Source: an uncultured virus (IMG/VR IMGVR_UViG_3300028165_000034)
Lineage: Duplodnaviria > Heunggongvirae > Uroviricota > Caudoviricetes
IMG/VR virus record: IMGVR_UViG_3300028165_000034
Coordinates: 62,001 to 119,354 of that record
Reading direction: 5' to 3' (one strand)
Length of the DNA: 57,354 nt
The notes under the pieces were generated by a model. The model was not told where the DNA came from. It saw only the letters and a list, made by a program, of their open reading frames with translations, and did not search any database. Shown here in pieces: positions 2,909-20,220 of this stretch; position 1 is the first letter of the stretch; the number at the start of each line of letters is the position of its first letter. The translations under genes and the position numbers were made by a program.

Positions 2909-4372
2909 ATGGCTCAACTAGCAATCAGTAAGGTCGTCGTTGACGAACAGGATATCTACAACGAGCTGGCGCGGCGTCTCGCAGAAAAGGGCACTTGGAA
3001 AGACCTGCTGCCCACGAACGTTTCGGCCACGCTGCTCACTCTTGCCTCTGGCGCAACCACAGTCAACCAGCACTACATCAACGTGTCTCTGCGTGAGGCC
3101 TTCCTCTCGACGGCCGTGCGTGACTCCTCCATCTTCGAGGGCGCTCGCTCTCTCGGTGTGAAGATTGCGCGCAAGGTCTCGGCTGGCTTGACTTGCTACC
3201 TGCAGAACAACCTGCAGTCGGTGAAGTTCATCCCTGCCTACAGTGAGTTCATGAACTCCTCGGAGAAGTATTTCAACCGTGAGCAATTGATGATCGCTCC
3301 GGGTACTGCCATCGAGGACGTCCAGCTCTACCAGGGTGAAGTGAAGCTCGTAGAGTTTGACGTGGACACGCTTGACCCAGCAGCCCTCCAGACGTTCGTG
3401 CTCTCCACTCCGAACTTCGTAGTCGCCGACATGGATATGCTTGTCTGGACAGAAGACAAGGTCTCGGGTGAAGCCACTGTCTGGAACTCGACTGACCAAG
3501 CACTGTACGAACTGGGTCCGACTGACAAAGCGTACTACGAGTTCACCACTGGTTCGGGTGACGTGGCGTTCATGTTCGGCACTGGCGACTACGGCTCCAA
3601 GCTGCCGGCAGGTACTCTGCTCAAGATTCGCTTCGTGGTCACGAAAGGCTCTACGGCCATCGGGATCAGTGGTGACAGAATCCGCATGACTTCCCAACCC
3701 GAGATTTCGGGTTTTACCACTTCCAACGTGGCTGGCGGTGGCGATCAGAAGTCTGCGCTGTACTACAAGCTGTTCGCACCCGTGATGTTCCGCTCCAATC
3801 GTAAGGCGATCAGCCCAAGCGAAGTGCGCGCCCACATCATGGCTTACCCTGGCGTTGCCGACTGCTCACTGTTCTTCCAGCGTGACGTTGCACCCAACGA
3901 TCCCAAGTGGCAGAACGTGTTGCGTGTGTGCATTCTCCCAGATAGCACTGATACCTGGGGTGGTGCCAACCCGAATCCGAAGTCTGCCGCATGGGCTGCC
4001 TTCGAACAGTGGTTGCTCAATCGCTGCCAAGCACTCGCCCAGATGCAGAGCTGGAACCCAGTGAAGATGTACGTTGGCGTCAAGGTGCTGCTCGCAGTCA
4101 ACAAGGATGTGGACATTGACGAAATGCGCATCCTCGTGACCGAGCGTATCCTGAAACTCTTCCAGCGTAAGCCCGGCATCTTGGGTCGCCGCCTTTCCAA
4201 GTCTGACATTGAAAACGCCTGCCGTCTGCAAGGTGTGGACTACATTGAAATCCTCTCGCCTTCTGAGGAAATCATTCCGCCTGATCGCACCATGTATTGC
4301 GTGCTCGATGGCAGCCCAGTAGTCAACATCGTGTACACCGAACGTACCGCAGGTATCTCTGGAGCCAACTGA
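2909..4372 (+). CDS. Baseplate wedge protein, T4 gp6 / P2 J-like
   Basis: EAFLSTA.RDSSI..GAR.LG, FGTGDYG..LP.G, AGGGD, R.AISPSE motifs; synteny. Confidence 0.85.
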   Translation: MAQLAISKVVVDEQDIYNELARRLAEKGTWKDLLPTNVSATLLTLASGATTVNQHYINVSLREAFLSTAVRDSSIFEGARSLGVKIARKVSAGLTCYLQNNLQSVKFIPAYSEFMNSSEKYFNREQLMIAPGTAIEDVQLYQGEVKLVEFDVDTLDPAALQTFVLSTPNFVVADMDMLVWTEDKVSGEATVWNSTDQALYELGPTDKAYYEFTTGSGDVAFMFGTGDYGSKLPAGTLLKIRFVVTKGSTAIGISGDRIRMTSQPEISGFTTSNVAGGGDQKSALYYKLFAPVMFRSNRKAISPSEVRAHIMAYPGVADCSLFFQRDVAPNDPKWQNVLRVCILPDSTDTWGGANPNPKSAAWAAFEQWLLNRCQALAQMQSWNPVKMYVGVKVLLAVNKDVDIDEMRILVTERILKLFQRKPGILGRRLSKSDIENACRLQGVDYIEILSPSEEIIPPDRTMYCVLDGSPVVNIVYTERTAGISGAN

Positions 4373-7300
4373 TGGACAAGCTCACATTCGAGCGGCTGCA
4401 GCCTGAGATTTTCTACGCGCAGCCGTGGATTCAGGACTTCGTGGACGTCTACGCCGAGGTGCTGAACGACCGCATCCGCTATCCGATCTACCAGCTTGAG
4501 ACCATCCGTGACATTACCAAGGTCATCGACCCATGGGTAGTGACGCAGACCCTAAAGCAAATCGGCTTCGACCTGCCACAGGACTTCATCAAGCACAACA
4601 TCCCCACGCTCAACCAAGCGATTCCGCAGCTGTCGATCTACGCAGAGCGCTCTGGTACCAATGACTACCCGCATACCATTGCGTTCATCCTGGGTCGTTC
4701 AGTTGATGCGATTGGCCTGTACACCGAGAACTACCAAGACTTCTACTCGCAAGCCTACGGGCCACTGCAGGTAGATGGTGGTGACTGGTTCAAGACCACG
4801 CACATCGAACTGGGGATGCAGTACCTGCCACAGGACTACAAGTTGCTGCTCCCACGTGGGAAGACCATCAAGGACCGGTTCCTCGAGGCGTTCTATGAGT
4901 TCGCCCCATGGAACATCGTGGTAGAGCGCTTCTTCTTCAACGTGGACGTGGGTGCAAACCTTCACCTATCTGGGCGCATCGTCAAGCAGCCCAAGCGTTA
5001 CATCGACGTGGGTGTTGGTGAAATGCACGTGGAGAACGTGAAGATCGTTGGCCCAACTGAGGTATACGAGGGCAGCGAGCAGGAGTTTGAGCTAATCATC
5101 ACGCTCGCCAACGGCAGTGAAGGCACACCGGGTACTCCTGACATTCCAGGCACTCCCGGTACGCCGTACATTCCCGAGGTACCATATCAGCCTGCTGTCC
5201 CAGCTGTTCCAGGCAGCCCTGAGATTCCGTACCAGCCTGCGAAGCCTGAGGTGCAAGCGCAACCTGCTGTGCCAGAGATACCGTACCAGCCAGCAGTGCC
5301 TGAAGTACCTTATCAGGCAGCCGTTCCAGAAGTGCAGTACAAGCCCGCTGTGCCTGCTACGCCGTATCAGCCAGCAGTACCACCGCAAGATGCGTATACC
5401 CAGACAGGCACGTTCAAGCCTCTCATGGGTGTCGCTGGTTGGAACGCACAGGAAGCCACGATCAGCACCTTCGCCGAGATTGAGCCGAACTCGGAGTTCA
5501 GCATCGACGCGCCGGGTGAGAACGACTACGGCTATGTGTGCTATCCAAAGGCAATGGGTGAAGCACGGTTCACCGACAAGGTGTCCAACTTCGAAGGTGG
5601 ATGGGATGGTGCATCGTGGCCTGATCAGGACGTAGGTGATGAATACGGGCCTATTGAGATTGAGCGCACAGTCAATGGTGTGACGCTCACGTGGTACCTG
5701 TACCGTACCGACTTCTCGGGCATTGGTTCAGCTACATACGACTTCCAAGTGCCTAACCCGCAGAACGGTAGTTACTCGATCTACCACGAGGCAGTCCCGG
5801 GCAAGCCAGAAGTACCGGCTAACCCAGGCTCTCCTGAAGTGCCGTACCAAGCAGCCAAGCCAGAGGTCCCATATCAGGCTGCTGTTCCAGAAATCCCGTA
5901 TCAAGCAGGTAAGCCAGCAGTGCCTTATCAGCCTGCGACGCCTGAGATTCCATACCAACCTGCTGTGCCTGCTGTACCAGGTAAGCCAGAAGTCCCATAC
6001 CAGCCAGCAGTGCCAGCAACACCAGGCACTCCAGCGATTCCGGGTACTCCTGCTACGCCAGCAGTGGACACCTACTTCACGCAGACAGTCCGTGTGAAGG
6101 GTGTATGGAACAGTAGTCGCACTGGCCTCGTGGGCTTCAATGGTGACTTCGCCTCCTTTGGCAACGTCAGCTTTGATACCGACGTGGTGATCTATGGCGA
6201 GTACGAGGGTATGTCCGCCAGCCTGAACGTCAAGGTGAAGAACAGCGCCAGCAACATCAGGACCATCGAGATTCAAGGCCCTGACAGTGTCCGTGCGAAC
6301 GAGTTTGGCACCTACCAAGTGGTAGCTCATACCACAGGCGGTGATGAAACCCACGACCTGACGATCACCACGCGCTCCACACTGGGTTACATGCAGGGCA
6401 ACAACCTCCATGTGTACCAGATCGACGCTGATGGTGAGGTGATCCTGAGCGCCGAGTGCAAGCTCCCTGATGGGCAGACGCTCACCGCCGTGAAGAAGGT
6501 GCAGGCCATCTTCGTGGACCCTGATGTTCACCTTGTGGACCTTGAGATACTCGGCCCTGACAGCTTCTACGAGAACGAGGTGAAGCAATACACCCTCGTG
6601 GCGCATTACTCGGATGGAACGCACAAGGGCGTACTGGGTGCATGGGATCCCGGCTGTGGTGCCATCTACATCACACCTGATGGTGAGGCCTACATCACCG
6701 AGACACTGGCCGAGTTGGACATTACCTTCAAGGCCACGCACCAGTACAAGGGTGTCAAGCTCACGGCAACCAAGCCTGTGTCCTTCCTCCGCCGGACGGT
6801 TAGCGTGGTGCATACGGAGATTCTTGGACCAAACCAAGTGGTGGAAAACACCAAGAATCGCTACGTTGTGTCCGCCCGATTCTCGGATGGTTCTACGGGC
6901 ATAGTGGATGCAGATTGGACAACAAATCGCTTCTATATTGACGAAAGAGGGTACCTGGAGGTGGGCTCTGTTGGCTCCACACCGGTCAATCTCCAGTTGC
7001 GTGCTCGCGTCAACGGGCGGGATGCCATCAAGCAGATCGTAGCCATCAATACACCGGTGACATTGGACAACATCCTTGTCATGGGCCCGGATAACGTCCG
7101 GGAAGGCAGCTTGGGCAAGTTCACTGCATACGCACACTACTCCAATGGCCGTGACGTGGAAATCACGCCCACGTGGTCGATTAAGGGTGATCCTGCATGG
7201 GCATCCATTGACGTCAACGGGTTGCTGTCGTTCGAGGACCCACTGGTTGGTATCGTGGAGGTTGTTGCTACATACCGGCTGGGTGGTAAGGCATACGTGC

Positions 7301-11149: not shown

Positions 11150-11611
11150 ATGATCTGCTACGTCATGCCCGATGGGAGTTATGGACGCAGCACACAGCCG
11201 CCACACGACGCCATTCCCATTGGTGACGACATATACAGGATGCTGGAGGACAACCCTGGCATGCTGGACATTGAAGTCACCGGTGTGAATGTTCGGATCA
11301 GCCCATCGCTTATTTCCTACAAGGCAAAGGCGCTGGAGATTATCCGTACCGAAGTGGGCAAGCTGCTGCCGTCTGAGCAGCATCTGAACCAACTGCACCG
11401 CAGCGTTGCTTGCGAGCAGTCCTGTTTCGATGAGGTCCTTGGCTGGTTAACGGTTGAGGACACGCGCAAGACGTTTGCGCAGCTTAACGAACGGCACAAC
11501 AAGCTGCGATTCATTCAACACGACAGCACCTCCATGGTGGGGCAAGCAACAGCCTGTGAACAGGTTGATACCATACTGGAGGCATTGTCGCATACACTAG
11601 GTGCACTATGA
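11150..11611 (+). CDS. Hypothetical protein, possible fibre assembly chaperone
   Basis: Operon-coupled ORF immediately after the fibre gene; function inferred from position only. Confidence 0.55.
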   Translation: MICYVMPDGSYGRSTQPPHDAIPIGDDIYRMLEDNPGMLDIEVTGVNVRISPSLISYKAKALEIIRTEVGKLLPSEQHLNQLHRSVACEQSCFDEVLGWLTVEDTRKTFAQLNERHNKLRFIQHDSTSMVGQATACEQVDTILEALSHTLGAL

Positions 11612-13017
11612 GTGTGAAAGGTGTTTCCGACTCTCCACTCCTTGGGAAGTCTATCCTAGGAGACCAATCCCGGGTGCCCATCGGTGCGCCTGTGATTACA
11701 AACCTCAGGGTGAAGAACTCGAAAGAGATTCAGGCCCTGATGACTGGCCAGACATTGACTGAGCCACAACTCAACCAGTTCGAGACGTTTGGGCAGGATG
11801 GCAGGGAAGCCTTCCGCAAAGAGTCCAACAGCATCGACTACCGTGATCGCACGCTGGAGAACGGGCGCCTTATCGAGGAGTGGAGCTACGACCCACAAAC
11901 GGGTTCGCTTGTCCTCGTGCGGAAGAACCAAGAAGAGTACCGCATCTTCAACTTCCTGCGCCAAGACGCGATGGGTCATGGTGCTACAGGTCCTCGTGGC
12001 GATCCGGGTAAAGATGGGAAGAACGGACGTCTCGGTCGTGATGGTGCTCAAGGTGCTACCGGTTGCGAAGGTGAGAAGGGTGATCCGGGTGAGACTGGTA
12101 ACCCAGGCGTCGAAGGTAATCCCGGCATCATGGGCTTGCAAGGTCCAGACGGTTGTGAGGGTGCATCGGGCGATCGTGGTGTCGTGGGTCCACAGGGACG
12201 TAACGGGTTTGAAGGCGCTCGTGGCCTCACTGGACCAAGTTGCGATGAAGAGAACACTGGCGCTCAAGGTGCACAAGGTGCCAAGTTCGGTAAGGGTGTT
12301 GCCTTTGGCCTAGCCGCTGCCTCTGATCCAGAAGTCGCAATCATGGGCTTGGACGATGACGGTGTTGATGCAGTTGCGCCAACGTGTGGCTGGACTGGTA
12401 AGCTGTGCGGTGCAACTACTGCGCCAGCAACGCCTGCTCCTGATACATCAGCGCCAGCTAACCCATCGCCTCCACCTACTGCATCTGCGCGCATCAGCCT
12501 GTGTACGAGCTTTGGTAACCAGAGTCCGAAGAGTTCGTGTGGTGGTACCTCGACTGCGTGGTATGTTGCATGGGCCAACTTCGATGCAGGTGGCGGTGTA
12601 CTGGGTCTCTCGGGACTTCCACTCGCACGGCAAAACACTGCATGGTGGCCAAACAGTGTCGTCATGTGTGGTACTCTGGCCGCTGGTGCAGCGTACACCT
12701 TCGAGTTGATTACTCCACCGGGCGTTGCCTCCACCTTGTTCCTGAACTGTGCGATCATCAGCCAGACGGACTACCCAGGTGGTACCACGCGAGTCACGAA
12801 GACACTGGACAAACCCACTGAGGTTCGCCTGCGCTTCCTCAACAACGCAGCGCGCATCCCAACGTGGTGTGCCCTGAAAATCTACAACGCCTCCACAGGC
12901 GAACTGCTGTACTTCACGGGTAAGAATGCCAAGAACGCCGGCCTCAAAGGTGAGTTTGCCTCATCCAAGACTGACGACAACTGGGCAGGCAACAGCTCCG
13001 TGCAGCAGTACCTATAA
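11608..13017 (+). CDS. Collagen-like fibre protein 1 (29 Gly-X-Y triplets, Cys-rich C-terminal beta domain)
   Basis: Uninterrupted Gly-X-Y run; YDPQTGSLVL N-domain shared with paralogues. Confidence 0.85.
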   Translation: MSVKGVSDSPLLGKSILGDQSRVPIGAPVITNLRVKNSKEIQALMTGQTLTEPQLNQFETFGQDGREAFRKESNSIDYRDRTLENGRLIEEWSYDPQTGSLVLVRKNQEEYRIFNFLRQDAMGHGATGPRGDPGKDGKNGRLGRDGAQGATGCEGEKGDPGETGNPGVEGNPGIMGLQGPDGCEGASGDRGVVGPQGRNGFEGARGLTGPSCDEENTGAQGAQGAKFGKGVAFGLAAASDPEVAIMGLDDDGVDAVAPTCGWTGKLCGATTAPATPAPDTSAPANPSPPPTASARISLCTSFGNQSPKSSCGGTSTAWYVAWANFDAGGGVLGLSGLPLARQNTAWWPNSVVMCGTLAAGAAYTFELITPPGVASTLFLNCAIISQTDYPGGTTRVTKTLDKPTEVRLRFLNNAARIPTWCALKIYNASTGELLYFTGKNAKNAGLKGEFASSKTDDNWAGNSSVQQYL

Positions 13018-13026
13018 GGATTCAAC

Positions 13027-13722
13027 ATGACAGGCTTGACTCGAATCCACAGTTCGTTGATCTATGCCCCGGGTGAATCAGACCAGACCGAAGTAGTGGT
13101 CAGGGACGAACACCTTGAGGCCAGTGCGCCGCTTGAGTCGGATATCAGTGAAGTCTCCAGCGGCTACTACGATGCCCAGCTGGGTATCCTGACGCTCACC
13201 ATGAGCAACGGTGATACCGTTCGTATCAATGGCTTTGCCACAGCGGGTAACATCCCTGCTGGTCCCACAGGCCCTCAGGGTTTGCCGGGTAAAGATGGCC
13301 AAGACGGCCGTGATGGTAAGGACGGTGAGAAAGGCGAAGAGGGTTGCCAAGGTCCAGCGGGGCCACAAGGCGCCACTGGTGCTACCGGCCCTGATGGTCG
13401 CGATGGCATGATGGGTCAGCAAGGCGTTCGTGGTTGCCCAGGTCCCAAGGGTGCACCGGGTGAACGCGGACCCACTGGCCCGCAAGGTCCAATCGGCCCC
13501 ACTGGTCCAAGAGGTGAGCAAGGTCCTACGGGTAAGCCGGGTGCTCCTGGCCCTGCAGGTACCGTGAATATCATCGTCTCCACTACTGACCCTGGTAACG
13601 TGGGTGCTGGCTGGCTCTGGGTTAACCCAAGCGCCACTGAAACTCCTGCATCGGGTGGCGGCGGTGGCGGCACTGTAACGCCTCCTGCGACTGACCCACC
13701 CATCGGCACTCCATGGCCATAA
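13027..13722 (+). CDS. Collagen-like fibre protein 2 (~34 triplets)
   Basis: Gly-X-Y run; [13 protein letters not shown]-domain; C-terminal DP....G.LWV.P; AAGGA RBS. Confidence 0.88.
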
Positions 13723-13734
13723 CAAGGTGACCTT

Positions 13735-14250
13735 ATGCTGACTCGCGTTCCACTCAAATTGCTCGATGCCAAAGGTCGCTCTGGTAGTGACGTGCGCTTC
13801 GATGGTAACAACGTCGTGGTGGAAGAGGATAGCCTCAACCAGAACGACTACGGCATCACGGCTGGTAACTACGACGCCACCTCTGGTACCCTGACGCTCG
13901 TCCTGCGCAATGGTGAAAGCCTCCAGCTCTCTGGGTTCACCACTGTCAGCGACATGGGCGTTGGCCAAGCAGGCCCCACTGGCCCAGCAGGTCAAGATGG
14001 CCGTGATGGTCTCAATGGTACTGACGGTGAGAAGGGTGCCACTGGTTGCCAAGGCCCAGCTGGCCCTCCCGGTCGTCAAGGCCCTCGCGGCGAACAAGGC
14101 AACCCAGGGGCTACAGGCCCTAACGGTGCAACTGGACCCACTGGCCCTGATGGCAAGGATGGCGTCGTTCAAATCTGGATTCAGACCGCTGACCCAGTGC
14201 TGGATGCTGCCGTCCACGTTGTCCCTGGGGCACTGTGGGTCAAGCCATAA
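13735..14250 (+). CDS. Collagen-like fibre protein 3 (~23 triplets)
   Basis: Gly-X-Y run; LTRVPL.LLD and [13 protein letters not shown]-domain; C-terminal GALWVKP. Confidence 0.88.
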
Positions 14251-14265
14251 GTTGGAGTTCTACCA

Positions 14266-17200
14266 ATGAGTAGACTAAGAATCAGGAATGCGGCCAACAC
14301 CAAGTGGTTGGATATCTGCCAGAGTGAATGGCGGGTGCGCAATCCAAGCAACACAGGCTGGACACGCATCACTCCTGCGCAGGGCATGAAGGTTCGCCAT
14401 GGTGCTGAGACCTATTGGCTGGACATTGATTGCAAGGCGGAAGGCCTAGCCAGTTGTGACACTGAGGATGAGTACGGCGGCACACCGGACGGTAAGGGTA
14501 GCAATGGTTCAGGTGGTGGTAACGGCTCCGGCGGTGGAACAGGTGGCAACGGAGGCAACGGAGGGGCGGGCGGTAACGGCACGGACCCTGGGTCTGGGTC
14601 GGGCGGAATAGGAGGCGGTTTGAACGGTCCTGGCAGCCCTTGGTACAATAATGGGGATAAAGGATCCGGCCAAGGCGGCTCTGGATGGCAGGAAGGAGCA
14701 CCATATCCAGGTGGCTATGATCTGCCAGATAGCGATGGGGATGGAGCGGGCGACAAGGGCTCGTGTATCTACCGTCCCGGACTGGGTGTCTGTGAGGAGA
14801 AGGGTGTCCTCATTATCCGTCCGGACATGGACTGCGGTACGAAGATCGCCGGTGGGTTTGATTGCCCATTCGAGTGCCCAAGTGCTATCAATGGTAGCGG
14901 TAAGGGTATCTGGGAGTTCTACCTGAACATGGGCAAGGAAGGCGGTGCGGTGCGTATGCCATGGATGGCGAACGCTGGTGCTGTTAGTGTCGATGTGTAC
15001 TACCGCGGCAAGGTCATTGCGAGCACTGGTGGGCAGCGTACTGGCAAAGGCGTATTGCAGTTCGTGTTCACGCCGGTGAATAACGACCCACTGGTGTTTG
15101 TCCGGGTTAGGGCTACTAAGGCCAGCAAGTGGACGCTCCAGATGAAGTGCGTGGGTGACGACGATACGGACGGTGAAATCACTGATCCACGTCCATGCCA
15201 CGGTACGTTCGAGGTGAAGAAAGAAGGCGGGTTGGGAACGTTTGAGTTCTATCACGCCATGGGTGATAAGGCTGGCTTGGTAGACATACACTACCAGATG
15301 TGGAACCAGCCGGATAAGCTCGAAGTATTCCAAGACGGACGGTTGCTCAAGTCTACTGGCGGATACGTGGCAGGCGAAGGCCATGTGAAGTTTGACTATT
15401 CGCCTACCGAGTCGCAGCTTGTCATGGTGCGCATCACTGCACGGGACCCTGGGACCTCGTGGATTTACCTGATCACCTGTCCGGGCGAGAAGGGTAGTGA
15501 AGATGATCCACGGCCGTGTTCGGATCAGAGCGCCGTGACGTCTGGTGGTGCTGGTGTTACTGACACCTATGTCGATATGGGTCCGAATGCTGGTAAGGTG
15601 GGTGTGCGTTACCAGATGTACAACATCCCCGATAAGCTGGACGTCTATCAAGGCGGTACGTTGGTTGCGACGACTGGTGGGCCTGTTACTGGCGATCACT
15701 GGCTGTACTTCAACTACAACCCCGCTGGTGGTCAGAAGATCCAGATTCGGGTAACTGGCAGCGGTAAGACCTCGTGGTCGTTCCTGCATACGTGCCCGGG
15801 TGATGAGGATCCAAACATCAGCATCGACGATCCGATTGTCAAGGAAGGCAAGGAGGGTGAGACTGCCCAACTCTGCTGGACCGTGACTATGGATAAGCCG
15901 CAGTCCATGCCTGTGACTGTCGATTACCAATCTGGTGGCGGTACTGCTAAGCCCTTCATCTGCCAAGGCCGGATTTTGGCGAACGACGAGTTCAACAACC
16001 CCTTTATCGCAGTCGCGGACTGTGGCGTTGGTCGTGCAGCATTCGATGGCGGGTTCCCCAAGTTCTACAACAATGCCTACAGGGCGCCGCAGGATGCACC
16101 TACTGGTCAGGCCGTATTCGACTCGTGGTGGCGGACGGCAGGCGACGAGTATTACTCGGACCCTACCACAATCCCTGCTGCATCGCAAGCTACTGCATGG
16201 CGGTTGTCGAGCGGGAACATCCAGTCGACCACGAACAGTTCCAAGATGATTTCGTTCTGTTCGCCGCTGTCGTACATGAGCTACACGTTTGAGGCCACGC
16301 TGTCGTCTGGCGAGGCGGATGACGATATGATCGGCTTGGTAGCTGCGTTCGCCCGTGTTGGTGCTGACAACTACCATCTGGTTGCATCGCGTGTACCCGG
16401 TGGCATGGGAGGTTATGGTAGTGGTAACTTCAATCTGACGCTGCTTGTCAACGGTGTACCTACTAAGGTGCTCGCGACGAAGACTTCTGGCGGCAACGGG
16501 AACTGGAATGGTCGTGGGCAGACCCGTGTGCGGGTTGAGCGTGACTGCAACATCATCACGATCTACTGCTCACCCTTTGGTTCGGTTGCACTGGACTCTG
16601 GCACCAAGATCGAAGTGGACCTGAGTGCAGATGCTGACCTGAGCGCATTCACAGGCCAGACCAGCTGGGGCTTCTGTGCCCAGTCGCAAGCAAACGCCAC
16701 GTTCAGCTCCGTGTTCGTGTCCGGCATTGGTCTGCCACCTGCATTCACCTACCTGAAGAACTTGATCCAGTGGACTGCGCGCACCAACAATCGCACAGGC
16801 AAGGTGTTGATTACCTGCGACAACGCGACTGGTGGGAACTACACGCTCGACAGTCAGCCCAACGGGTTCGGTATCAGCTTGCCGGGTACTGTCACGGCTG
16901 CTGGCTTCACGCCTGTGATGAAAGACGTGTACGCGTGGAACTCTGTGGGTGCTATCCCACTGGCTGAGCTCCTGACGTATGACACCATCATCTTCATGGG
17001 TTCGCGGGTGACGGCAACTGGTGTAGCGGCTGAAGGTATCCTGAAGGAGGGTTCGGTAGCCAACTTCGCCGAGTACGCTAAGCGCGGTGGTGGCCTTGTT
17101 GTCATCACTGACCACTACGTCTTCGAGTCTGGTGCCAACCAGTTGGCTAACCTGTTCGGGATGGAGTTCTACGGCTCAGTGGATCGTAGTGCTATCAGCG

Positions 17201-17916
17201 TAGCTGCCATGATTACTGCGTGGGGCGATCACCAAGCGTGGGATGGTCTGCACTGCGAGAAGATTCCTGCAGGCGGTAGTGAAGGTGCACTGCGCATCAA
17301 GGTTGAGGAGCGTGACTATCAGCCAACATCGGGTACCGTGACGTTCGCACCGGGTGAGACTTCCAAGCAGGTCTGTGTCCCAGTCTTCGGTAACGACGTG
17401 CAGCAACCTGATCGCACCGTGGGCATGACCATCGGCAATGCGTCGAAGGGTAACATCACCAAGTCTGGTGGCTTCGGCACGATCATGGATGACGACAGCG
17501 CGATCTGCAACCAGAACCCAAGCGAGCAAGTGTTCGAGCGCGCTGGTGGTCCTGATGGCTGCAATCTCCTGCACGTGCAGCCAAACTTCGATTGCGCTGC
17601 TGGCAACGTCATGTACCTGATGCAAGCCTTCATCCCGTTCACGTACAGCGGCTCGCACGTTATCACCGTTATCTCGGACGATGACTATGAGTTGTACATT
17701 GACTGTAAGAAGGTGGGCTCTGGTCCAATTGGCGTGGCAACACTCACTGTGGATGTACGCGCGGGGACTCGCAACGTGATCCTGCGATACAAGAACATCC
17801 CGAACTGTACGCCTGGCTATGCTGGATTCAGCGTGCGCTACAACAACCAAGTCCAGTACCTGACCAAAGCAGCAGATTGGAAAGGTCAAGCCAACAGCAT
17901 TGGGGAGATCGGATAA
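14266..17916 (+). CDS. Large Cys-rich adhesin-like virion protein (3 internal repeats, split Calx-beta, lectin/TSP-C-like domain)
   Basis: Three ~100-aa repeats ending C(P/V)G; Calx-beta motifs VTVDYQ..GGTA and DYQPTSGTVTFAPGETSKQV...IMDDD; DDDMIGLV lectin-like motif. Confidence 0.75.
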   Translation: MSRLRIRNAANTKWLDICQSEWRVRNPSNTGWTRITPAQGMKVRHGAETYWLDIDCKAEGLASCDTEDEYGGTPDGKGSNGSGGGNGSGGGTGGNGGNGGAGGNGTDPGSGSGGIGGGLNGPGSPWYNNGDKGSGQGGSGWQEGAPYPGGYDLPDSDGDGAGDKGSCIYRPGLGVCEEKGVLIIRPDMDCGTKIAGGFDCPFECPSAINGSGKGIWEFYLNMGKEGGAVRMPWMANAGAVSVDVYYRGKVIASTGGQRTGKGVLQFVFTPVNNDPLVFVRVRATKASKWTLQMKCVGDDDTDGEITDPRPCHGTFEVKKEGGLGTFEFYHAMGDKAGLVDIHYQMWNQPDKLEVFQDGRLLKSTGGYVAGEGHVKFDYSPTESQLVMVRITARDPGTSWIYLITCPGEKGSEDDPRPCSDQSAVTSGGAGVTDTYVDMGPNAGKVGVRYQMYNIPDKLDVYQGGTLVATTGGPVTGDHWLYFNYNPAGGQKIQIRVTGSGKTSWSFLHTCPGDEDPNISIDDPIVKEGKEGETAQLCWTVTMDKPQSMPVTVDYQSGGGTAKPFICQGRILANDEFNNPFIAVADCGVGRAAFDGGFPKFYNNAYRAPQDAPTGQAVFDSWWRTAGDEYYSDPTTIPAASQATAWRLSSGNIQSTTNSSKMISFCSPLSYMSYTFEATLSSGEADDDMIGLVAAFARVGADNYHLVASRVPGGMGGYGSGNFNLTLLVNGVPTKVLATKTSGGNGNWNGRGQTRVRVERDCNIITIYCSPFGSVALDSGTKIEVDLSADADLSAFTGQTSWGFCAQSQANATFSSVFVSGIGLPPAFTYLKNLIQWTARTNNRTGKVLITCDNATGGNYTLDSQPNGFGISLPGTVTAAGFTPVMKDVYAWNSVGAIPLAELLTYDTIIFMGSRVTATGVAAEGILKEGSVANFAEYAKRGGGLVVITDHYVFESGANQLANLFGMEFYGSVDRSAISVAAMITAWGDHQAWDGLHCEKIPAGGSEGALRIKVEERDYQPTSGTVTFAPGETSKQVCVPVFGNDVQQPDRTVGMTIGNASKGNITKSGGFGTIMDDDSAICNQNPSEQVFERAGGPDGCNLLHVQPNFDCAAGNVMYLMQAFIPFTYSGSHVITVISDDDYELYIDCKKVGSGPIGVATLTVDVRAGTRNVILRYKNIPNCTPGYAGFSVRYNNQVQYLTKAADWKGQANSIGEIG

Positions 17917-18086
17917 TGGCAGTCAGACTCCGTGTTCGACAGTCCGTTAGCGACCCGTGGATTCAAAACTTTGACAAGCTGGGTTGGAAAGTCAGGGCGA
18001 GCGACAACAAGTCGTGGATTCAGATGAACCCGCTCAACACCAAGGTGCGCTCCTCGGACAACACCAAATGGCTCAACGTGAAGTGA
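17916..18086 (+). CDS. Small protein homologous to the N-terminus of the upstream adhesin
   Basis: ATG overlaps upstream TAA; (R/K)VR...N..W repeats match MSRLRIRNAANTKW...WRVRNPSNTGW. Confidence 0.75.
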   Translation: MAVRLRVRQSVSDPWIQNFDKLGWKVRASDNKSWIQMNPLNTKVRSSDNTKWLNVK

Positions 18087-18093
18087 GAAGACT

Positions 18094-18903
18094 ATGACTG
18101 GTAGACTGACCAGGGTGCCATTGCCGCTGCTCGATCCGGGCACGGGTGATACCAACGACATTGTGAAGTTCAACGGCAATGAGCTGGAGCTTCAGGATGA
18201 CGAGAATCTGAACGGTGATACCACAATCGTCTCCGGTGATTATGACTCGGAGACGGGCTCACTCGTTCTCAACCGCGCGGATCGCAGTACGCTGCTGATC
18301 CGTGGCTTCCTTACAACGCAGTCGGTGGGAGTGGGGCCTACGGGTCCCACTGGCCCTCAAGGCAAACCCGGCTCGAACGGTCGTAACGGTAAAGACGGCC
18401 GTGTCGGCGATCAGGGTTGCGTTGGCCCCAAAGGTGATCCGGGTCCTCAGGGTGCAACCGGTCCTGCAGGTTCGAGTGGTGGTCCCGGTGTTCAGGGCGC
18501 TACTGGCCCGACGGGTCCCACCGGTCCGACTGGCCCAGCAGGGCAAGATGGTAAGACGCCAACGTTCGGCGTGGGTGAAGTCGATGCCTACGAGCGATTC
18601 GACAACCTCAGCTTGAAGTGCTGGGGCCGCTTCACGTCGACCGAGGCTGCGCTTTTCCAGCGCGTGATCTTCCCAGAGTCGTTCATCACCGACAAGCCTC
18701 GGACAATGCACATCCAGTTCATTAACCCGAAGAGCAACGTCAAGAACGCTGTGCGGATTGATCGGGTGAACAAGGGTAACGCAGAGCTTTCCGTGGACAC
18801 CTCGCTGCTTGCACAAGAGAGCGATGGTGCTGGCGGGACTCAACCTGTGGCTGCCACCGGCTGGGACTTCTACTACTTCGTCATTGGCAGCGACGCTCCT
18901 TAA
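18094..18903 (+). CDS. Collagen-like fibre protein 4 (~25 triplets, C-terminal fibre-tip/H-lectin-like domain)
   Basis: LTRVPLPLLD, YDSETGSLVL..GF; Gly-X-Y run; CWG....VIFPESF...FYYFVIG tip pattern. Confidence 0.85.
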   Translation: MTGRLTRVPLPLLDPGTGDTNDIVKFNGNELELQDDENLNGDTTIVSGDYDSETGSLVLNRADRSTLLIRGFLTTQSVGVGPTGPTGPQGKPGSNGRNGKDGRVGDQGCVGPKGDPGPQGATGPAGSSGGPGVQGATGPTGPTGPTGPAGQDGKTPTFGVGEVDAYERFDNLSLKCWGRFTSTEAALFQRVIFPESFITDKPRTMHIQFINPKSNVKNAVRIDRVNKGNAELSVDTSLLAQESDGAGGTQPVAATGWDFYYFVIGSDAP

Positions 18904-19361: not shown

Positions 19362-19392
19362 TTTAGACGCAGTGTAAATCGAGGTGAATCCC

Positions 19393-20220
19393 ATGGTCCT
19401 GCCGATTGCAAGACTCATTCAGGCAGCGCAAGTCCGAGGCCTGACTGACTCTAATCCCGTGCTGCTTACCACAGACGGGCCAAGCAAAACCCGCATCAAC
19501 ATCATCGTGAGCAAGGTGGAGCCGATTGAAGTCGTGGCTCCACTGGACCTCATCTGGATCGACCCGAGTACGTCAACGGCACTGCGCCGTGTCAACCGCG
19601 GTGCGAGTGCAAACCACACGCATACGTGGACTGCGGCAACGGAGTCCAACTTCTGGAACGCGCAGATGTGGGACGAGCCTCGTCCTAGCGATCAGGACTT
19701 CCAAGAACTGAATCGCAACATCGGCAACACGCACGACTTGACGGCATTCGACCTGGGTGCATTCGATGCAACTGGCGGCCGCTTCACTGGGCCTGTGTAC
19801 CCACGCACTCTTGGAACAAGCGAGGACTACGCGGCTGATGAAGCCGTGCCTCGTTCGTTCGTTGAGAAGCTGACGTCCGCTGCTCAGTCGCTCGCAGCAT
19901 CCGTGTACCAACAGCTTACCAGTGTGCGCAACTCGGTGCGTGCCCTGGGTACCCGTACAACTACCGTTGAGAACAAGGTGAAAGCCCTTGAGCTTGGCGG
20001 CGGTGACGGTGTTCCAAAGTTTCTGCACACGCAGGAAGATGAGGACCTGGAGTGGCTGATCGCTCACGACCTAGGTACTGAGAACCTCATCATCGCAGTC
20101 GCGTTGCCCAACGGGGATTACATGATTCCCGCTGAGCAAATCCCTCTGGACGGCAACAATGTCCGCATCACATTCGCCGCTCCACGCTCCGGCACTGCGG
20201 CGATCATTGGCATAAGGTAA
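19393..20220 (+). CDS. Virion structural protein (coiled coil plus C-terminal W.I.H.LG beta domain)
   Basis: GAGGTG RBS; GGRFTGP, EAVPRSFV, coiled coil; C-domain shared with the 22744, 24451 and 25047 products. Confidence 0.65.
   Translation: MVLPIARLIQAAQVRGLTDSNPVLLTTDGPSKTRINIIVSKVEPIEVVAPLDLIWIDPSTSTALRRVNRGASANHTHTWTAATESNFWNAQMWDEPRPSDQDFQELNRNIGNTHDLTAFDLGAFDATGGRFTGPVYPRTLGTSEDYAADEAVPRSFVEKLTSAAQSLAASVYQQLTSVRNSVRALGTRTTTVENKVKALELGGGDGVPKFLHTQEDEDLEWLIAHDLGTENLIIAVALPNGDYMIPAEQIPLDGNNVRITFAAPRSGTAAIIGIR

Follow-up and report, generated by a model that had tools for sequence, protein, structure and literature searches.

Registered cysteines in four paralogous collagen-like fibre proteins of a PaBG-group jumbo phage, and a possible mixed-chain helix

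Collagen-like fibre proteins are already known from phages. The best-studied among them is EPclA, one of four proteins (EPclA-D) encoded by prophages of E. coli O157:H7 as fibre parts in which a Gly-X-Y rod stands between globular domains. According to the available part of PMC3368898, the EPcl rod measures about 30 nm, trimerisation is driven by the flanking domains, and EPclA is a homotrimer with a PfN domain, a coiled coil and a PfC domain. Here we describe four paralogous collagen genes in positions 62,001 to 119,354 of the IMG/VR record IMGVR_UViG_3300028165_000034, a stretch of 57,354 nucleotides from an uncultured virus (Caudoviricetes) that we call the window. The encoded chains are referred to as gp241-like, gp240-like, gp239-like and gp236-like after their counterparts in the Pseudomonas jumbo phage PaBG. 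They are likewise phage-borne rods of similar length between globular domains, but in the PaBG-type chains the helix directly follows the N-terminal domain. As judged from conservation, selection holds a solvent-exposed cysteine at the X position of triplet 10 in each of the four classes, and gp241-like and gp240-like carry signs of co-evolution with each other. Neither feature has a counterpart in EPcl, as far as can be told from the available text of PMC3368898, which uses the word "cysteine" once. The PHROG matches of the four chains belong to other tail-fibre families.

Type I collagen is composed of two alpha1 chains and one alpha2 chain, and type III collagen carries a C-terminal cystine knot. 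Animal collagens in general include heterotrimers (PMC8968730). Like a type I-like heterotrimer, the gp241-like and gp240-like pair consists of two paralogous chains with helices of equal length in exact register, and the gp241-like chain, like a chain of an animal heterotrimer, scores poorly when paired with itself. The charges at the predicted strand contacts resemble those of designed heterotrimers (PMC12086834, available part). Homology between animal and phage chains is limited to the repeat, the phage chains have no C-propeptide, no hydroxyproline machinery is in view, and, unlike the animal heterotrimers, the phage heteromer is deduced from sequence only. C1q and other defence collagens bundle stalks of different chains in register over about 10 nm at their N-terminal side, with disulfides and splayed heads (PMC11869133, available part). 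In C1q the disulfides precede the helix on its N-terminal side and gC1q domains form the heads, whereas the phage cysteines sit within the helix at X positions and the tips are sugar-binding-like. In type I collagen, same-position cysteines of two chains form inter-chain disulfides within the helix, in Y-position and Gly-position cases (alpha1(I) R780C and G766C), at a cost of about 0.5 degrees C in stability (PMC6039012, available part). Cysteines in animal helices are a terminal Cys-Cys pair or pathological; those of the phage are single, apparently selected, placed mid-helix at X and repeated every 10 triplets, and the gp241-like chain ends a helical segment with one more Cys, at a Gly position, that resembles the type III knot.

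By synteny and protein identity, the window is a structural-gene block from a relative of PaBG (Baikalvirus). In PaBG, gp241, gp240, gp239 and gp236 are the syntenic orthologues of the open reading frames (ORFs) starting at 11608, 13027, 13735 and 18094, respectively, and the window's orthologues share 61-76% protein identity with PaBG (65% for gp241, 75.7% for gp236). A megablast search of the region against phage records returned zero matches; relatives were seen in protein mode. In PaBG, a baseplate wedge gene is followed by a large Ig-repeat tail protein, a 769-residue "tail-collar fibre" protein, a small protein and then the fibre cluster, whose order in both PaBG and the window is gp241, gp240, gp239, a 1216-residue protein, a small ORF and gp236. 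The collagen cluster thus sits after the baseplate wedge gene. All cluster genes lie on the + strand, head to tail, with stop and start codons that overlap or nearly touch. Six further isolates (Y3, Lu11, JA11, NCTB, HRDY3 and fHe-Yen9-02) share with PaBG the gene order, N-terminal domain, helix lengths, Cys10 and helix-end Cys; PaBG has Cys20 in both the gp241-like and the gp240-like chain, and the other six isolates are without it. Within the 119-kb source record, these four paralogues are the only copies of the module. The PaBG orthologues are annotated "tail fiber protein", and the RefSeq label "virion structural protein" on some isolate chains is annotation only. The word "collagen" occurs 0 times in the full texts of the published PaBG and Dickeya-phage papers searched, and our literature searches turned up no paper describing registered cysteines or a phage collagen with mixed chains.

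The four chains are recognised by Pfam as Collagen (PF01391; 53, 64.4, 38.7 and 44.2 bits for the ORFs at 11608, 13027, 13735 and 18094; cut-off 27.2), and the Pfam scan found no other family in them. An N-terminal domain with the pattern YD..G.L.L......(G/N)F, which the earlier note on this DNA had placed directly before the Gly-X-Y run, indeed aligns in all eight proteins of the window and PaBG, runs straight into the helix and is followed by an invariant Cys10 column. Protein identity between the paralogues is only about 30-38%. Counting from the first Gly-X-Y of each run (GQA for the ORF at 13735), we again find Gly-Cys-Y at triplet 10 in all four chains, as GCE, GCQ, GCQ and GCV. The charged G(K/R/Q)(D/N)-type block that was said to precede this cysteine occupies triplets 4-8. 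The two longest helices also repeat the cysteine at the X position of triplet 20 (GCE in the 469-residue chain, GCP in the 231-residue chain), with GIM and GLQ or GMM and GQQ, respectively, at triplets 17 and 18. The C-terminal parts differ overall, as had been noted, except that in the first three proteins (11608, 13027 and 13735) the helix is followed by a common short strand motif with (S/T)xDP at its end.

The gp241-like chain (469 residues, 11608..13017, assigned from its ORF, Pfam and PaBG alignment) consists of an N-terminal region with the anchor domain, a helix of 29 triplets (11980..12240, about 24.9 nm), Cys212 directly after triplet 29 (codon 12241-12243), an 8-residue interruption between glycines, three more triplets and a tip. 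Its Cys10 and Cys20 codons lie at 12064-12066 and 12154-12156. The gp240-like chain (231 residues, 13027..13722, assigned on the same grounds) has the anchor domain, a helix of 34 triplets (13261-13566, about 29.2 nm) with Cys10 at 13345-13347 and Cys20 at 13435-13437, a short post-helix cap and a Gly/Pro-rich tail. In the gp239-like chain (171 residues, 13735..14250; ORF, Pfam and alignment), the anchor domain is followed by 23 triplets (13963-14169, about 19.7 nm; Cys10 at 14047-14049) and a 26-residue beta cap. The gp236-like chain (269 residues, 18094..18903; ORF, Pfam and PaBG identity) combines the anchor domain with 25 triplets (18334-18558, about 21.4 nm; Cys10 at 18418-18420) and a predicted beta-sandwich tip (18601-18900). 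The 231-residue protein contains two cysteines in total (Cys10 and Cys20), the 171-residue protein one (Cys10) and the 269-residue protein two. Proline fills 14-26% of the X and Y positions over the four helices, and 8 of 58 in the gp241-like helix, which makes it imino-poor. Across the aligned relatives, helix length is fixed within each gene class. The gp239-like helix has 23 triplets in 12 of 12 aligned sequences and in all 17 genomes having the gene, and the gp240-like helix has 34, or 33 in two cases. The gp236-like short forms have 24-25 triplets, and some genomes carry instead a long form with 40-53 triplets and another tip. The gp241-like relatives combine 29 triplets, the Gly-position Cys, one or two non-Gly triplets and three further triplets, and the resulting total of 33-34 triplet positions matches the length of the gp240-like helix.

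Cys10 would stand about 8.6 nm above the anchor. In a profile-defined, de-duplicated set, Cys is found at X10 in 152 of 166 sequences; the 14 exceptions are five family members (with A, E, F, D and A) and nine distant fibre proteins with other helix lengths. A word-indexed search with the N-terminal domain and the first 13 triplets gave 95 hits, 57 of them with the N-terminal domain, and 53 of these 57 have the cysteine. The profile-defined set of 166 replaces a looser tally by regular expression, dropped for its unrelated collagens and misplaced helix starts. Members picked by a separate, narrower regular expression have Cys at X10 in 103 of 110 cases (two of the 110 are false picks), and over their 5,994 X and Y positions cysteine occurs only at X10 (103), X20 (16) and Y28 (1). 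For comparison, cysteine fills 36 of 62,040 X and Y positions (about 0.06%) in the collagen runs of 147 mostly unrelated hits from a profile search of 1.84 billion representatives, in which six of the 150 listed hits are family members. The six isolates keep Cys10 in 23 of 24 chains. Scans of loci in viral and metagenome contigs added about 15 more genomes, and among their paralogues a single one is without the cysteine; since the scan patterns included the gp236-like Cys motif, the gp236-like matches are biased towards Cys and the neighbouring paralogues are not.

The earlier note had proposed to weigh the position of the cysteine against drift at other X and Y positions. This comparison comes out in favour of a fixed cysteine: Cys10 is held in about 95% of family members, and its neighbours vary, the following Y10 residue drifting among V, Q, S, A, I, T, M and P. 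Over triplets 1-15, the entropy is 0.48 bits at X10, 0.50 bits at an aspartate in Y7 and 0.9-3.4 bits in the remaining X and Y columns. The first 13 triplets of the four paralogues share 53-62% nucleotide identity, with 26-49% identity at third positions and a longest identical run of 14 bases between paralogues. This low third-position identity rules out gene conversion as the source of the shared cysteine, in that no recent event of this kind accounts for the shared codon.

The pattern scan also returned unrelated collagens with a Cys-rich N-terminus, in which several G-C-x G-P-K G-D groups occur within the first 27 triplets. They come from loci L113, L117, L123, L128-L130, L145, L147 and L167, and also L133, L137, L155 and L158, and look like separate families.

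The second cysteine, Cys20, goes together in two of the four chains. Among 14 genomes in which both chains could be read (L097, L100 and L102, with an unreadable gp241-like gene, and L090, with gp241-like cut by the contig end, are omitted), the presence of Cys20 in gp241-like and gp240-like chains is concordant in 14 of 14. Both chains have it in the window, PaBG, L091, L009 and L072, and neither has it in L092, L099, G001, Y3, Lu11, JA11, NCTB, HRDY3 and fHe-Yen9-02. On an 18-genome tree this distribution requires three to four changes, at least two of which are forced by well-supported branches. A search with the gp241-like chain found cysteines at helix residues 29, 59 and 88 in 21 of 21 orthologue clusters, and the last of them, the helix-end Cys, occupies a Gly position and closes the 29-triplet segment in every gp241-like chain. 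By its position it is the most knot-like of the three cysteines of this chain. Cys10 and Cys20 are single mid-helix residues at X and the helix-end Cys is a single residue at a Gly position, so the pattern differs from a type III-like knot, in which neighbouring cysteines at Y and the next Gly position join all three chains at the helix end; an extra Cys at Y28 and nearby is found only in Lu11, HRDY3 and L099. The inter-chain cystine knots suggested in the earlier note may form, given that in-helix bonds between same-position cysteines are documented for Y and Gly positions; on the other side, a review places two X-position cysteines of one ideal helix too far apart.

Two side observations concern the gp241-like class. 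Single Gly-to-Ala substitutions recur inside its helices (triplet 16 in L091, P0252-P0258 and L072; triplet 6 in G001 and Lu11; triplet 5 in P0262-P0263), and none was found among the gp240-like and gp239-like chains that were read in 18 genomes, as would suit a chain that contributes fewer than three strands to each helix. The gp241-like proteins of Y3 (L178, 9001-10434) and NCTB (L181, 7017-8534) have a different C-terminal part for which the records annotate an intein domain. An intein-type role for the helix-end Cys was considered and rejected, the Hint matches of Y3 and NCTB being weak, below the Pfam cut-off and starting far downstream.

A mixed helix should also leave a trace in the charges that face each other. 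We compared cognate with non-cognate gp241-like and gp240-like partners in the 14 genomes, using 20,000 permutations and a score made up of cross-chain terms only. This form was adopted because control pairs had reached p 0.0007-0.019 with the best of six registers and same-chain terms included; earlier tree and charge tests with 8 and 12 genomes are superseded by the 14- and 18-genome versions. In a collagen triple helix, Y(n)-X(n) is a lateral and Y(n)-X(n+1) an N-to-C axial strand contact, both at about 5-7 A, and the reverse axial pair is more than 12 A apart (PMC12086834, available part). The cognate score exceeds the non-cognate score at exactly these two contacts: 6.93 vs 3.86 for Y(n)-X(n+1) and 7.21 vs 4.47 for Y(n)-X(n), neither of which was reached by any of the 20,000 permutations. 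No cognate excess was found in the 14 genomes for X-X, Y-Y, Y(n)-X(n-1), X(n+2), X(n+3) or X(n-2) (p 0.15-0.85), the differences for X-X and Y-Y being -0.07 and +0.45. The signal is present in both directions, is maximal at zero register shift and persists when the two most extreme genomes are left out. Thinning to a single genome per clade (8 clades) gives a cognate score of 13.88 vs 7.75 (p 5e-5). In 8 genomes the cognate partner scores highest of the 14. At the family level, complementarity thus appears only at the predicted strand contacts of a heterotrimer. The gp241-like chain scores negatively with itself in 7 of 14 genomes (down to -19.5), which never happens in the other classes, and mixing brings a gain in charge score in 10 of 14 genomes, a strong one in 6. 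L092 has two gp240-like genes beside its gp241-like gene (3251-5808); its best charge composition is a helix of three different chains (12, vs -14, 3 and 6 for the homotrimers), by a small margin.

Several observations weigh against a mixed helix or against other parts of the arrangement favoured below. In the window itself, mixing gains nothing electrostatically (-5 for A1B2, -4 for A2B1), and the cognate partner ranks only 4th of 14 (11 vs 9.2, with 3 of 13 non-cognates higher); three further genomes have a negative mixing gain (-13, -5 and -8). Control pairs show small cognate excesses (p 0.004 for 239/236, 0.014 for 240/236 and 0.09 for 241/236), so that the scoring may carry some confound, and both the contact rules and the scores were devised by us as simple counts of charge. 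The joint distribution of Cys20 amounts to only two to three independent contrasts (sign test p 0.5), too few for such a test. The invariant Gly-position Cys of gp241-like has no counterpart in gp240-like. Its lack of a partner there speaks for helices that hold at least two copies of gp241-like, perhaps three, and the crude charge scores slightly favour one. The gp241-like chain has an N-terminal extension, and the two chains diverge past the helix. Cys10 is itself missing from four gp239-like relatives and one gp236-like relative, and in the gp241-like chain of JA11 it is replaced by Asn, the other three JA11 chains keeping it. Finally, none of the four chains appears in the structural proteome table of PaBG (14 bands; PMC7412058), the supplements of which might list more.

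On balance we favour an arrangement in which the gp241-like and gp240-like chains form a mixed helix, the two other chains form homotrimers, and rings of thiols serve as cross-link points after lysis, although we give this whole picture slightly less than an even chance. The products of these genes would be the fibres with collagen stalks in a jumbo myophage of the PaBG group, each chain starting with an anchor or trimerisation domain of about 75 residues that runs straight into the helix. The gp241-like and gp240-like chains would wind into one 2:1 helix, with either chain doubled, and gp239-like and gp236-like would each assemble with themselves, giving three fibre species per virion, not four. 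The particle would be put together in the reducing cytoplasm, and once the cell has lysed, covalent bonds could arise by oxidation of the rings of thiols at levels 10, 20 and about 30. Such disulfides would fix chain composition and register and stiffen a rod that has no hydroxyproline. The tips would then bind the host surface, through a sugar-binding-like domain in gp241-like and a lectin-like sandwich in gp236-like. More specifically, we propose tentatively, and would not be surprised to be wrong, that this is a heterotrimeric phage collagen in which the contact charges set chain choice and register and the thiol rings, one superhelix turn apart, lock the assembly and tie the fibres into a covalent, multi-tipped array. 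The heterotrimers anticipated in the earlier note would accordingly be confined to the pair at 11608 and 13027, for which Cys20 co-variation and contact-charge co-evolution speak; we see no sign that the chains at 13735 or 18094 mix.

Where the bonds would form can be considered separately. Thirty residues make one turn of the 10/3 collagen superhelix, in which X and Y side chains point outward, and an in-helix disulfide between X positions has reportedly been seen. According to the available part of PMC13138384, 10/3 symmetry goes with imino-poor regions, two X-position cysteines of one ideal helix are too distant to bond, and helix cysteines mostly bond other molecules. We would prefer bonds between fibres standing in register on the baseplate, because the cysteine stands equally high in every class and Cys20 follows Cys10 after exactly 30 residues. 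Nearly as likely is one bond within each helix plus a spare thiol per level, for which simplicity and the homotrimeric members speak.

A different use of the same cysteines would require no mixed helix. The four chains could all be homotrimers, with gp241-like and gp240-like rods lying side by side, held by charge patches and an inter-rod ladder of disulfides at levels 10 and 20, and with the other two fibres joining at level 10 in a multi-tipped bundle comparable to the stem of C1q. The equal height of Cys10 in four classes, the spacing of exactly 30 residues and the co-variation of Cys20 in 14 of 14 genomes all suit this arrangement. Same-level charges are complementary as well (cognate 2.43 vs -0.34; 0 of 20,000 permutations), and exposed hydrophobic triplets (GIM, GMM) lie at the common level 17. 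The tendency of helix cysteines to bond other molecules (PMC13138384, available part) and the bundling of C1q triple helices in register over about 10 nm (PMC11869133, available part) provide precedents. Packing of separate rods, however, gives no reason for a charge signal limited to in-helix contacts, and no signal is seen at same-level X-X or Y-Y or at offsets other than the two in-helix contacts. In 7 of 14 genomes, moreover, a gp241-like homotrimer would bring like charges together. We consider this arrangement unlikely, if worth keeping in mind. The side-by-side bundling raised in the earlier note retains the same height in four paralogues and the exact 30-residue fit as its grounds, and no direct evidence for it emerged here.

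It is also conceivable, though we rate it as decidedly improbable, that the fibres are independent homotrimers in which each ring of cysteines is an in-helix staple (one disulfide and one spare thiol per level), the apparent co-evolution being an artefact of scoring or shared history. Characterised prokaryotic collagens are all homotrimers (PMC8968730), as is EPclA by size-exclusion chromatography with multi-angle laser light scattering (PMC3368898, available part), and the documented same-position disulfides described above (PMC6039012, available part) cost little stability. The lack of mixing gain in the window pair and the small cognate excesses of the control pairs point the same way. A three-copy model of the gp239-like chain also passes, with a score of 0.56 against 0.00 for the best control; of 30 solved pairs 20 came up to this mark, and of 23 single chains one did. 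Its runs have at least 80% of contacts in common, partner predicted local distance difference test (pLDDT) values are at least 69, and the contacts involve residues 73-145 along the helix, the N-terminal domain and the C-terminal cap. Since a likeness to solved structures is to be expected of any collagen helix, the result speaks for resemblance and no more. Against independent staples, cysteines that merely stabilise need not share a triplet in paralogues of about 30-38% identity, nor be 30 residues apart. Joint gain or loss of Cys20 in two genes is left unexplained, and so is a geometry-specific charge signal that is robust to clade thinning and outlier removal. There is also no excess of like charges at same-position contacts (X-X and Y-Y, as given above), which argues against concerted evolution as the source of the signal.

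Cys10 might alternatively be the centre of a non-covalent or metal docking patch at which one baseplate or adaptor protein, common to the fibres, grips each of them at an equal height, comparable to the collagen motifs read by integrins or by the C1q and mannose-binding lectin (MBL) proteases. In 16 gp236-like orthologues of 40-66% identity, R97, D101, C109, P112, K113 and D115 are invariant, as part of a motif GRN GKD Gxx Gxx GCx GPK GD over triplets 6-12, with Arg and Asn in triplet 6, Lys and Asp in 7, Cys in 10, Pro and Lys in 11 and Asp in 12 constituting the invariant patch. The aspartate at Y7 is about as conserved across classes as Cys10 itself, and the first 12 triplets vary less than the remaining helix. 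A candidate partner is encoded within the cluster, namely the 1216-residue protein with three kept cysteines and its homologous small ORF. Apart from Asp7 and Cys10, however, the patch differs among classes, the residues that replace the cysteine at X10 (A, E, F, D, N) are chemically unrelated, which a surface position can tolerate but which would be unexpected in a tight docking site, and Cys20 and the helix-end Cys are left unaccounted for. We rate docking, too, as decidedly improbable. That the cysteine is a functionless ancestral relic or a product of gene conversion, as shared descent of the paralogues might allow, is very improbable and close to refuted by its retention at 40% identity while Y10 takes at least eight residues, and by the entropy, third-position, identical-run and background values given above.

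The candidate partner is a non-collagen, fibre-like protein (gp238-like; 14266..17916, + strand). Its N-terminal 55 residues form a triple (R/K)xR...W repeat, and its Cys 18, 56 and 64 are kept in every genome with an alignable N-terminus. The small ORF (17916..18086, + strand; junction sequence and BLASTP) encodes 56 residues if translated from an ATG that overlaps the TAA of the preceding gene, and is homologous to this repeat (14266-14430; BLASTP E 4e-8, 32% over 53 residues). Of 11 other loci, 9 also have it immediately before the gp236-like gene. The repeat module common to the two may be a second kind of anchor module, and the 1216-residue protein is on these grounds a candidate partner of the collagen fibres. 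Residues of about 516-819 of this protein match, at 29-35% identity, the tips of long collagen-stalk fibres in L097 (9992-12028) and L099 (10001-12031), which there stand in place of gp236-like. This match points to shuffling of tips between collagen and non-collagen fibres. Near its N-terminus (14500-14650) the gene encodes low-complexity sequence rich in Gly, Asn and Ser, at the place where GC skew, taken by bins, is strongest in the window (0.165 in 14001-16000).

Structure prediction gives some indication of what the tips do. The gp241-like model has pLDDT values of about 76-95 from residue 300 onward, and its C-terminal beta-sandwich (residues ~318-465, 12559..13002, + strand) was placed by prediction and fold search. 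It superimposes on chain B of the phage Chi tail tip (8vjh) with Z 11.9 and a root-mean-square deviation of 2.2 A over 125 residues, and also matches a Pleurotus lectin (Z 9.3), a rhamnosidase sugar-binding domain (Z 8.8) and PA14 domains (Z 5.9-6.1). A separate PA14 match with scores of 0.85-0.87 is taken as a lead only. The domain is probably a carbohydrate- or receptor-binding tip. The gp236-like tip, predicted at pLDDT of about 85-95, gives middling matches (Z 5.4-6.7) to the C-terminal lectin-like domains of tailspikes and R-pyocin fibres, and a Foldseek search of the gp236-like model against the PDB found no match at E <=0.001. No C1q entry is among the matches listed for either tip. Beyond the cluster, a 278-residue ORF at 19384-20220 is an HNH endonuclease according to the PaBG record and its PHROG family; Pfam gives it a weak helix-turn-helix match only, which together with its position among fibre genes makes the label doubtful.

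Phage collagen fibres are common and have been treated as simple homotrimeric spacers. PaBG-group phages have been described as "hairy Myoviridae", and no gene assignment of these appendages was found in the literature examined. If the arrangement favoured here is true, the four chains would be candidate proteins for the fibres of these hairy jumbo phages, and their cysteines would show how cross-linking of a virion appendage can be put off until the particle has left the cell. Partner choice is left elsewhere to large propeptides in animal collagens and to designed charge pairs in synthetic peptides. The gp241-like and gp240-like pair would then be the first mixed-chain collagen helix outside animals, and a small, hydroxyproline-free and bacterially encoded model of how collagen chains choose partner and register.

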